Positions 4,233-5,490 of a stretch of DNA of 10,399 nucleotides are shown one piece after another. The position numbers and the translations under genes were made by a program. Positions within the stretch are counted from its first letter, which is position 1. Each line of letters opens with the position of its first letter. Source of the stretch: a virus (lineage: Monodnaviria > Loebvirae > Hofneiviricota > Faserviricetes > Tubulavirales > Inoviridae); IMG/VR virus record IMGVR_UViG_2609459774_000002; one strand, 5' to 3'. Under the pieces are notes generated by a model. The model ran no database searches. It saw only the letters and a list, made by a program, of their open reading frames with translations, and was not told the DNA's origin.

Positions 4233-5490
4233 CTATGGTGTGGTGAGAGAAACGGACATCCCCCCGGCACCGCTGCCGGACGAACGCGACGGAGAAGGAT
4301 CACTGCCGGACCCACTGTGAAACGTGATATGTTCGCCATCCAGTTCAAGTACAGTAAGCAGCCCTTCATACGGCAGTTCACTGCGCACAAGCCGCGTGAC
4401 GTTACTGTTACTGCGCAGAATAAAAACCCCCTGCCCGTTACCGTCACGCATATGACCGGAAAGCCGCCAGACACGGGAAAGCGGCAGTTCTGCCGGGGAT
4501 GCGGCCTGCGGTACAGGCGGCGCTTTTTCAGTGGTGATTACCTGTGGCGGTGCCTGCATGACCGTTGCCGCCGGCTCATCAGGTGTGCCGGAGAAAAAAT
4601 CCAGCACAAGACGTCCCCAGAACCAGAAAAACAGGCCACCCACCACAACGGACAACAGTTTTTTACGGCGCGCCTGCTGCTGCTCCTTTCGTTCCTCTGC
4701 CGTGAAGGTCTGCAAATCCCCTTTCTCCTGCCGCTCACGCAGCCGCCGGAACTGCCGGAGGGTTCTGCCGGGCAACAGGGAATACATGGCGCGCATATCA
4801 CAGACCCGCTGATGCTCACCCGTTCCGAGCAGTTCCATTCCGTCATCAAATACCATGTTCGTCGGATGGATACCGTAAAAGGACGGCGCATAAAAAACGC
4901 GGGATTCATTGGGACGGGAATTCGCCCGGGGAACACCGATATAAATTTTTGCCGAAATCAGGTGCGGCAGAAGCCCTTTCCGGCTGCCCGTATCGCCAAA
5001 CTTATCCGGCATGCAGAGTTCCAGAATATCGGACACGACCGGGACACGAATACGATCAAGACGACGGCAGCGGACAATCAGCTCACCCGTGGATTTAAAT
5101 ATTTTGCTGTCAACGGCGGATTCATCCTGCACCTGAATATAAACATCCCAGCCCAGTTTCCCGGACTGTACAAACCATTTGTAATATTCCAGGTATTCCC
5201 GGCCGGAAGATGTGCCGTTAAGCCATGTTCCGACCTCATCCAGAAATAACGCACCAAACCGCTCCTTCTCATTTTCATCACAACCACGCCCCAGCGCCCA
5301 GAAATCTTCAGGACGAGGACGGGCCGGAAGCACGGTCACCGGATGCGATGAAGCCGGGTCCATTTTTTTCAGTATCAAGCGGGTAATTTGCCGCAATTCT
5401 GTGTCCGCGACGGTAAAACTGTTTTGCCACCATGGAGCAGAACAGCCCCTTCCCGTTGCGCATTTTTCCTGTCACCCAGTAAACAGCCAT
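4233..5490 (-). pseudogene. gpI / Zot-like assembly NTPase, split across two frames by a frameshift in a homopolymer run near 5360-5370
   Basis: N-terminal 60-aa ORF (5308-5490) begins MAVYWVTGK, matching M13 gpI MAVYFVTGK; the 387-aa ORF (4233-5396) continues the gpI alignment (ALGRG, LDE.GTW, KLGWD, VQD, CRRLDRI) in another frame; the frames overlap at an A7 run on the coding strand (T7 on plus). Confidence 0.6.

Follow-up and report, generated by a model that had tools for sequence, protein, structure and literature searches.

A probable single-base insertion in an A run splits gene I of a filamentous prophage in Escherichia coli 2_210_07_S4_C1

The DNA analysed here (the window, 10,399 nt) is the reverse complement of bases 1-10399 of contig JNPW01000048.1 (11,504 nt), part of the draft assembly GCA_000703925.1. 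The host is E. coli 2_210_07_S4_C1 (ST410, phylogroup B1, O8:H9), a strain that came from a Tanzanian child and whose draft consists of 85 contigs (PMC6222053 supplement). A complete filamentous (Inovirus-like) prophage is found on the minus strand of the window. Small proteins are encoded by the prophage in addition to the Rep_trans, gpIII-like, gpVI-position, Zot and secretin proteins. The features of the window are as follows.

1-2542, minus strand: part of a neighbouring mini filamentous element of 3.67 kb, with a gpII/X-type Rep and a gpV-type protein
2543-2570, minus strand: dif-like junction site, AGTGCGCATAATGTGTTACACGTTATGT, between the prophage and the neighbouring element
3003-4223, minus strand: gene IV-like secretin, 406 aa, in frame, with two substitutions private to the window
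4233-5396, minus strand: 3′ part of gene I, a 387-aa ORF from a TTG, in the +1 frame, native from Met43
5308-5490, minus strand: 5′ fragment of gene I, a 60-aa ORF, residues 1-42 native, with the Walker A motif
5311-5471, minus strand: overlap of 161 nt in which both frames are open
5363-5369, minus strand: A7 homopolymer (T7 on the plus strand), where one nt is inserted relative to the A6 of relatives
5498-5857, minus strand: hydrophobic protein in the gpVI position, 119 aa, intact, assigned by gene position
5860-7185, minus strand: gpIII-like adsorption protein, 441 aa, intact, by Pfam Phage_Coat_A
7241-7516, minus strand: protein in the major coat position, 91 aa, by PHROG 17608 and a weak match to a 'major head protein' family
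8155-9351, minus strand: Rep_trans replication initiator, 398 aa as called, intact, with one private substitution, G143D

The genes follow the order gpIII (Phage_Coat_A), 119-aa protein, Zot and secretin, and gene I is thus flanked by the gpVI-position and secretin genes. The 119-aa protein has an identical sequence listed in 673 blocks of the assembly collection, and the gpIII-like protein displays a single private substitution, G96V. The Pfam Zot profile (PF05707, cut-off 20.3 bits) matches the intact allele of strain 504211 with 38.8 bits and the 387-aa fragment of the window with 33 bits. When the reading frame is repaired in silico by removal of one A, the protein aligns with M13 pI (V00604) without a break across the junction, with 33% identity over residues 1-219 and an E value of 4e-30. 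Profile, gene order and M13 match together bear out the Zot-like gpI identity that had been proposed from the sequence alone.

The likeness to the pI of the Ff phages (M13, f1 and fd) consists of this 33% identity over residues 1-219, the Zot hit, the Walker B motif and the gpVI-I-IV gene order. However, the C-terminal half of the window pI does not align with M13 pI, and gene I of M13 is unsplit whereas here there is a +1 frameshift. In a blastn search, the gene gave no nucleotide match to any record of the phage collection; relatives in that collection are found only at the protein level, in Ff, Ralstonia and Vibrio phages. No sequence relative of pI was found in the PDB.

The Walker A sequence, GKMRNGKG, departs from the canonical G/AxxxxGK[T/S] in having Gly for Thr/Ser, but the conserved Lys is kept. 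Among 16 aligned homologues, the 15 that share the GKG form are from E. coli, Salmonella, Edwardsiella and Vibrio; the sixteenth and most distant, from Halomonas, displays the M13-like GKT. The Ff phages have GxxxxGK[T/S], whereas GxxxxGKG is found throughout the clade of the window. The deviant P-loop may be functional, as phages that carry it seem to be active, judging by their tandem arrays. The Walker B motif (hhhhDE) is present as ALFLDE at residues 80-85, with L83, D84 and E85 invariant in the 16-homologue alignment, and it aligns with LVLDE of M13. In addition, a near-invariant D-M-R (Met232) is situated approximately 40 residues before a hydrophobic segment, and its Met is a candidate start for pXI.

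The A run is part of GAAAAAAATGG on the coding strand. The insertion converts GAA AAA ATG to GAA AAA AAT G, and the 60-aa ORF, which begins with the ATG of MAVYWVTGK..., leaves its native frame: its last 18 residues are an out-of-frame tail that ends at the stop codon TGA, 5308-5310. The 387-aa ORF is in the +1 frame relative to it, and the first native residue of this ORF is Met43, with the ATG at 5360-5362. As a result, Walker A (5446-5469, minus strand) lies within the 60-aa ORF, and Walker B (LFLDE, 5235-5249) is in the 387-aa ORF together with the hydrophobic segment LLSVVVGGLFFWFWGRLVLDFF and the C-terminal domain. The two motifs, which share a single polypeptide in all relatives, are separated in the window.

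Removal of one A gives a protein of 418 aa that differs by 3 residues from the protein of strain E24377A. Modelling of run lengths from A4 to A10 shows that a single ORF is restored only by A6 or A9. The sequence-only reading had placed the two gpI ORFs (5308-5490 and 4233-5396) in different frames with the switch at the A7 run, and both points hold: A7 versus A6 is the sole local difference from the relatives, and M13 pI is continuous with the protein after removal of the A. It had also stated that A8 or A6 would restore the frame. This is correct for A6, but an A8 run leads to a stop at codon 52. From the A7 allele, a full-length product can arise only by a +1 shift or by an mRNA correction of -1 nt inside 5311-5471.

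The length of the run was read in all fetched loci, which include complete E. coli genomes, drafts and metagenome contigs. The comparison with related prophages, which had been proposed as a check, gives A6 in 46 of the 46 other copies read (20 distinct sequence contexts), and the window is the only A7 among the 47. Each of the 46 A6 copies has one intact gene of 418-422 aa. The gene matches 64 chromosomal places with 98-99% identity, in 22 of 5,426 complete E. coli genomes and with up to 8 places per genome; each of the 64 bears the annotation of an intact CDS with a Zot domain. For an 81-nt probe with the A7 run in its middle, there was no 100% match in any complete E. coli genome, and the best match in each of the 22 chromosomal records was 80 nt, i.e., A6. 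A scan with a pattern of variable run length matched five metagenome contigs, A6 in all five, and a pattern scan of the GTDB species-representative genomes gave no match. A related plasmid record, pJNE25-005_3, was left out of the counts, being only 92% identical and having fragmented genes.

Strains 504211 and E24377A are identical to the window over 211 aligned bases except for one fewer A in the run; E24377A also differs by a G/T SNP 24 nt downstream of the run. Alignments with three relatives over 5.0-7.6 kb show approximately 1% substitution. Of the indels in 7.6 kb, only the extra A breaks a reading frame; the others are in gpIII and, being of 3 nt, keep the frame. The junction NYPxDTEKxxPxSxxPVTVLP is read in a single frame in 16 homologues, the identity of which goes down to 26%. 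The A run itself derives from E-K-M codons found only in the E. coli clade; at these positions Edwardsiella has EIM and Salmonella has EKL.

Further copies with a break in or close to the A run may exist. The 50-aa product expected from an A5 run was found once, on a 2.7-kb Logan contig, and in E. coli O35:H4 isolates a 378-aa Zot ORF is annotated from Met43, directly after the run. The products expected from A4, A8 and A10 runs are absent from the collection.

The A7 run is probably a real, non-programmed insertion of one A that inactivates gene I. The split is strain-specific and not conserved, and therefore it is regarded as an ordinary inactivating frameshift and not a programmed one. Among the three options offered from the sequence alone (an inactivating 1-nt indel, a sequencing error and slippage-dependent expression), the indel is the one best supported, and it is an insertion relative to every related copy read. 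Replication slippage in the sequenced DNA would have added one A to an A6 run, after which full-length pI would be made at background error levels only. Neither the prophage nor a near-identical second copy in the same strain (see below) would then assemble or export virions, unless another resident phage gives pI. The replication genes are in frame, and the element could still replicate and re-integrate at dif intracellularly; this would account for two copies with one lesion.

Since gene I and both of its Walker motifs have essential roles in Ff phages, we infer that gene I has lost its function here. By this analogy the prophage would be unable to assemble virions by itself, because its Walker A and Walker B are on different polypeptides and, according to Loh et al. 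2017 as related in a preprint (bioRxiv 10.1101/2022.09.21.508815), both are essential to M13 pI. The same is expected because, in YpfΦ, knockout of a morphogenesis, secretion or replication gene abolishes particle production (PMC4266046). It had been proposed that the gene I lesion decides on its own whether virions are made. This goes too far, since another copy in a tandem array could supply pI in trans, and a suspect substitution in the secretin is also present.

In practice, users of the strain should treat the prophage as unable to assemble virions on its own. The gene I annotation should read frameshifted pseudogene; present databases list a 387-aa 'Zot domain' protein, joined in GenBank by a hypothetical protein of 60 aa. 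Homopolymer frameshifts specific to one strain are an ordinary and already well-known type of event in prophage genes. The finding thus matters mainly for annotation and for workers on this strain, and raises no new biological question.

The secretin has two private substitutions, N60S (4044-4046) and P313S (3285-3287), both on the minus strand and in no other allele read. P313S aligns to Pro in two solved GspD secretins, and may be a second, independent virion-export defect. The ratio of nonsynonymous to synonymous changes in the secretin is 2:0 for private changes and 6:41 for the population, and the secretin appears from the latter ratio to be otherwise under strong purifying selection. Taking together all substitutions private to the window, 4 are nonsynonymous and 1 synonymous, versus 87:132 in the other alleles (one-sided Fisher p = 0.089). 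The private nonsynonymous changes suggest that the export module was already under relaxed constraint, with an excess that is small (p ~0.09).

The length of the A7 run rests on one draft assembly, and an artefact should also be considered, whereby the true run is A6, gene I is intact, and the extra A stems from a consensus over a collapsed or duplicated repeat. The draft is a 2014 short-read assembly (Illumina HiSeq 2000, 100-bp reads, MaSuRCA 2.3.2; PMC6222053), and A7 is restricted to it, one of the 47 copies read. No second isolate of the clone exists, the sister colonies being ST216 and not ST410. The rest of the prophage is entirely in frame, and the A5 variant in one short contig shows that the run is sometimes miscalled or mutated. 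However, the platform is Illumina HiSeq, for which 1-nt indel errors at runs of 6-7 nt are rare and should not dominate a consensus. In addition, other homopolymers of the same contig, namely two T8 runs, a T7 run and two further A7 runs, have lengths equal to those of the relatives, so that longer homopolymers than the A6 of the relatives were assembled correctly.

A second occurrence of the lesion bears on the artefact from both sides. By exact-sequence look-up, the 60-aa truncated product is found only in E. coli 2_210_07_S4_C1, on two contigs: KDW83561.1 on the window contig and KDW86087.1 on a 58.7-kb contig, which differ at G51V. The second contig, JNPW01000025.1 (52225-58560), aligns to JNPW01000048.1 1-5590 with 1 mismatch and 0 gaps over 5,590 nt, and A7 is present in both. 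Its order is hipA, a dif-like site and the same prophage, and the contig ends inside gene I. A 111-aa protein is also encoded on it. The exact secretin sequence of the window and a 69-aa ORF are found on no contig in the collection other than the window's own, and a 57-aa ORF is widespread. The 387-aa ORF of the second copy, as guessed from the E24377A allele, is absent from the collection.

The strain would thus seem to hold at least two near-identical copies, or else one repeat consensus was placed twice; the overlap with JNPW01000025.1 points to a tandem array or a doubled repeat consensus, beyond the resolution of short reads. At least two near-identical phage copies cannot be cleanly separated with 100-bp reads. 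Moreover, the contigs are 1 SNP apart in 5.6 kb, and therefore the shared A7 represents one event, not two independent observations; an identical lesion on near-identical repeat contigs of a short-read assembly is in general not independent evidence. On the other side, the single SNP between the two contigs is only 24 nt from the A run, and A7 is nevertheless present in both; the private nonsynonymous changes in the secretin, with the relaxed constraint they suggest, also speak against an artefact. On balance an artefact is considered unlikely, though it deserves to be kept in mind. Parallel mutation or gene conversion in two non-identical copies was considered as well and dropped, as the 5,590 nt are identical except for the one SNP.

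Slippage-dependent expression would leave the insertion real but the gene functional: enough pI would be made through slippage of RNA polymerase, or through +1 ribosomal frameshifting on A AAA AAU. Ff phages need little pI. It can be reasoned that, if the peptidyl-tRNA slipped by +1 from the Lys codon AAA to the overlapping AAA, the exact wild-type ...DTEKMDP... would be restored, and with a frame overlap of 161 nt, shifts at other sites could give a near-native protein. Background, non-programmed frameshift suppression in E. coli amounts to 1-10% in aggregate, for -1 events (PMC10861913). However, the two-ORF arrangement is not conserved, the 46 other copies and the 16 homologues having a single ORF. 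No stimulatory element was detected: there is no SD-like sequence upstream of the run and no stop or rare codon at the putative recoding site (the A-site codon is AAU), and the folding of the 93 nt downstream is no stronger than that of shuffled sequence (z = -0.44). The 7-A run also falls below the 9 A's, or 8 in some organisms, documented for efficient transcriptional slippage (PMC1088944). [quoted passage not shown]

Slippage as the source of sufficient pI is therefore judged very unlikely, and the proposal of slippage-dependent expression as a programmed feature is not upheld, given a split that is not conserved, the lack of a stimulatory signal and the run of only 7 A's. Trace full-length pI from background frameshifting would be noise, not design. 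The homopolymer frameshift pseudogenes of Baranov et al. 2005, some of which are rescued by slippage, are similar in having a single-base change in an A run and uninterrupted orthologues. The rescued cases, however, have 9 (or 8) A's; here there are 7, and a deletion is needed instead of the favoured insertion. That the A7 allele is alive, with the small amount of pI needed for assembly coming from +1 slippage on A AAA AAU at a low level or from an occasional correction of the mRNA, is likewise considered highly improbable. If it were alive, dif-integrated E. coli inoviruses would have in the A6/A7 run a heritable means of limiting virion output, and the two copies sharing the lesion would represent spread of a still-viable phage.

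Phase variation, in which the run would serve as a contingency tract and frequent changes in its length would turn virion production on (A6) or off (A7), would fit a homopolymer within an essential gene, the one A7 strain and one A5 contig, and the 378-aa ORF annotated in some isolates from Met43, just past the run, but it is the reading given the least credence and is regarded as extremely unlikely, with A6 in 46 of the 47 copies read, including up to four copies per fetched locus, a run confined to the E-K-M codons of the E. coli clade, and a length of 6-7 nt that is short for a contingency locus in mismatch-repair-proficient E. coli.

The prophage with its inactivated gene I appears, from the sites at its borders, to be integrated at dif in the chromosome, with junctions that are dif-like hybrids. 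In E24377A, locus L007 and strain JNE112863, the arrays have a full dif site (0-1 mismatch) at their right end; positions of such right-end sites are 9356 in locus L002 and 35190 in locus L006. A hybrid dif-like site adjoins hipA in JNPW01000025.1 (locus L036, 674-701), and a similar hybrid is found at window positions 2543-2570, where the 5′ (XerC-side) stretch GTGCGCATAATGT is identical to the dif query and the remainder diverges. Integration at dif and hybrid junctions are shared with CTXΦ, YpfΦ/CUS-1 and UPΦ, the window element being located between hipA and dif. This differs from the Ff phages, which are purely episomal. The element forms tandem arrays of similar and dissimilar phages, which are also known for YpfΦ and UPΦ (PMC4266046, PMC7307601). 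The likeness of the window element to CUS-1/YpfΦ and UPΦ is one of architecture, and there is no nucleotide match in the phage collection.

Damage to assembly and export genes is also seen in other arrays. In one, IS21-type transposase genes (rve and IstB_IS21) follow a truncated 369-aa Zot and are themselves followed by a shortened secretin (locus L008, 10368-15220). In others, secretins are split into two to four ORFs (L024, 2770-3989; L028, 2807-4022). Damaged assembly and export genes are thus present in related arrays, and therefore decay of such genes is common, in line with a real lesion in gene I.

The neighbouring 3.67-kb mini-element encodes a 57-aa ORF, a 62-aa ORF (PHROG 5219), a gpII/X-type Rep (349 aa), a gpV-type ssDNA-binding protein (91 aa), an 87-aa ORF and a 201-aa D5-like regulator. 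Genes for a coat, for assembly or for a secretin are absent from it (window 1-2542; locus L003, 7830-11504). Having no gene I, it therefore cannot complement the lesion, and would itself need a helper phage. In strain JNE112863 the element is 99.9% identical and forms four tandem repeats between full-length phages (L006, 13000-27200). From its gene content it looks like a helper-dependent satellite, and in this it can be compared with RS1 of Vibrio cholerae.

A further record, NZ_AP045060.1, is the pJNE25-005_3 mentioned above, a 9,613-bp circular sequence annotated as a plasmid. It consists of a related phage genome and a copy of ISEc31, and probably represents an episomal replicative form with numerous assembly errors.

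The structural module (coat, gpIII, gpVI, Zot and secretin), approximately 98% identical, is combined with replication modules of at least three unrelated kinds. These are the Rep_trans type, a gpII/X type (371-375 aa) and a P2 gpA-like 'replication endonuclease' (654-660 aa). The swaps of replication module are seen across genomes or across positions in an array (loci L004, L006, L008-L016 and L022-L031). Some arrays also have cargo genes with a TolA domain or DUF2726.
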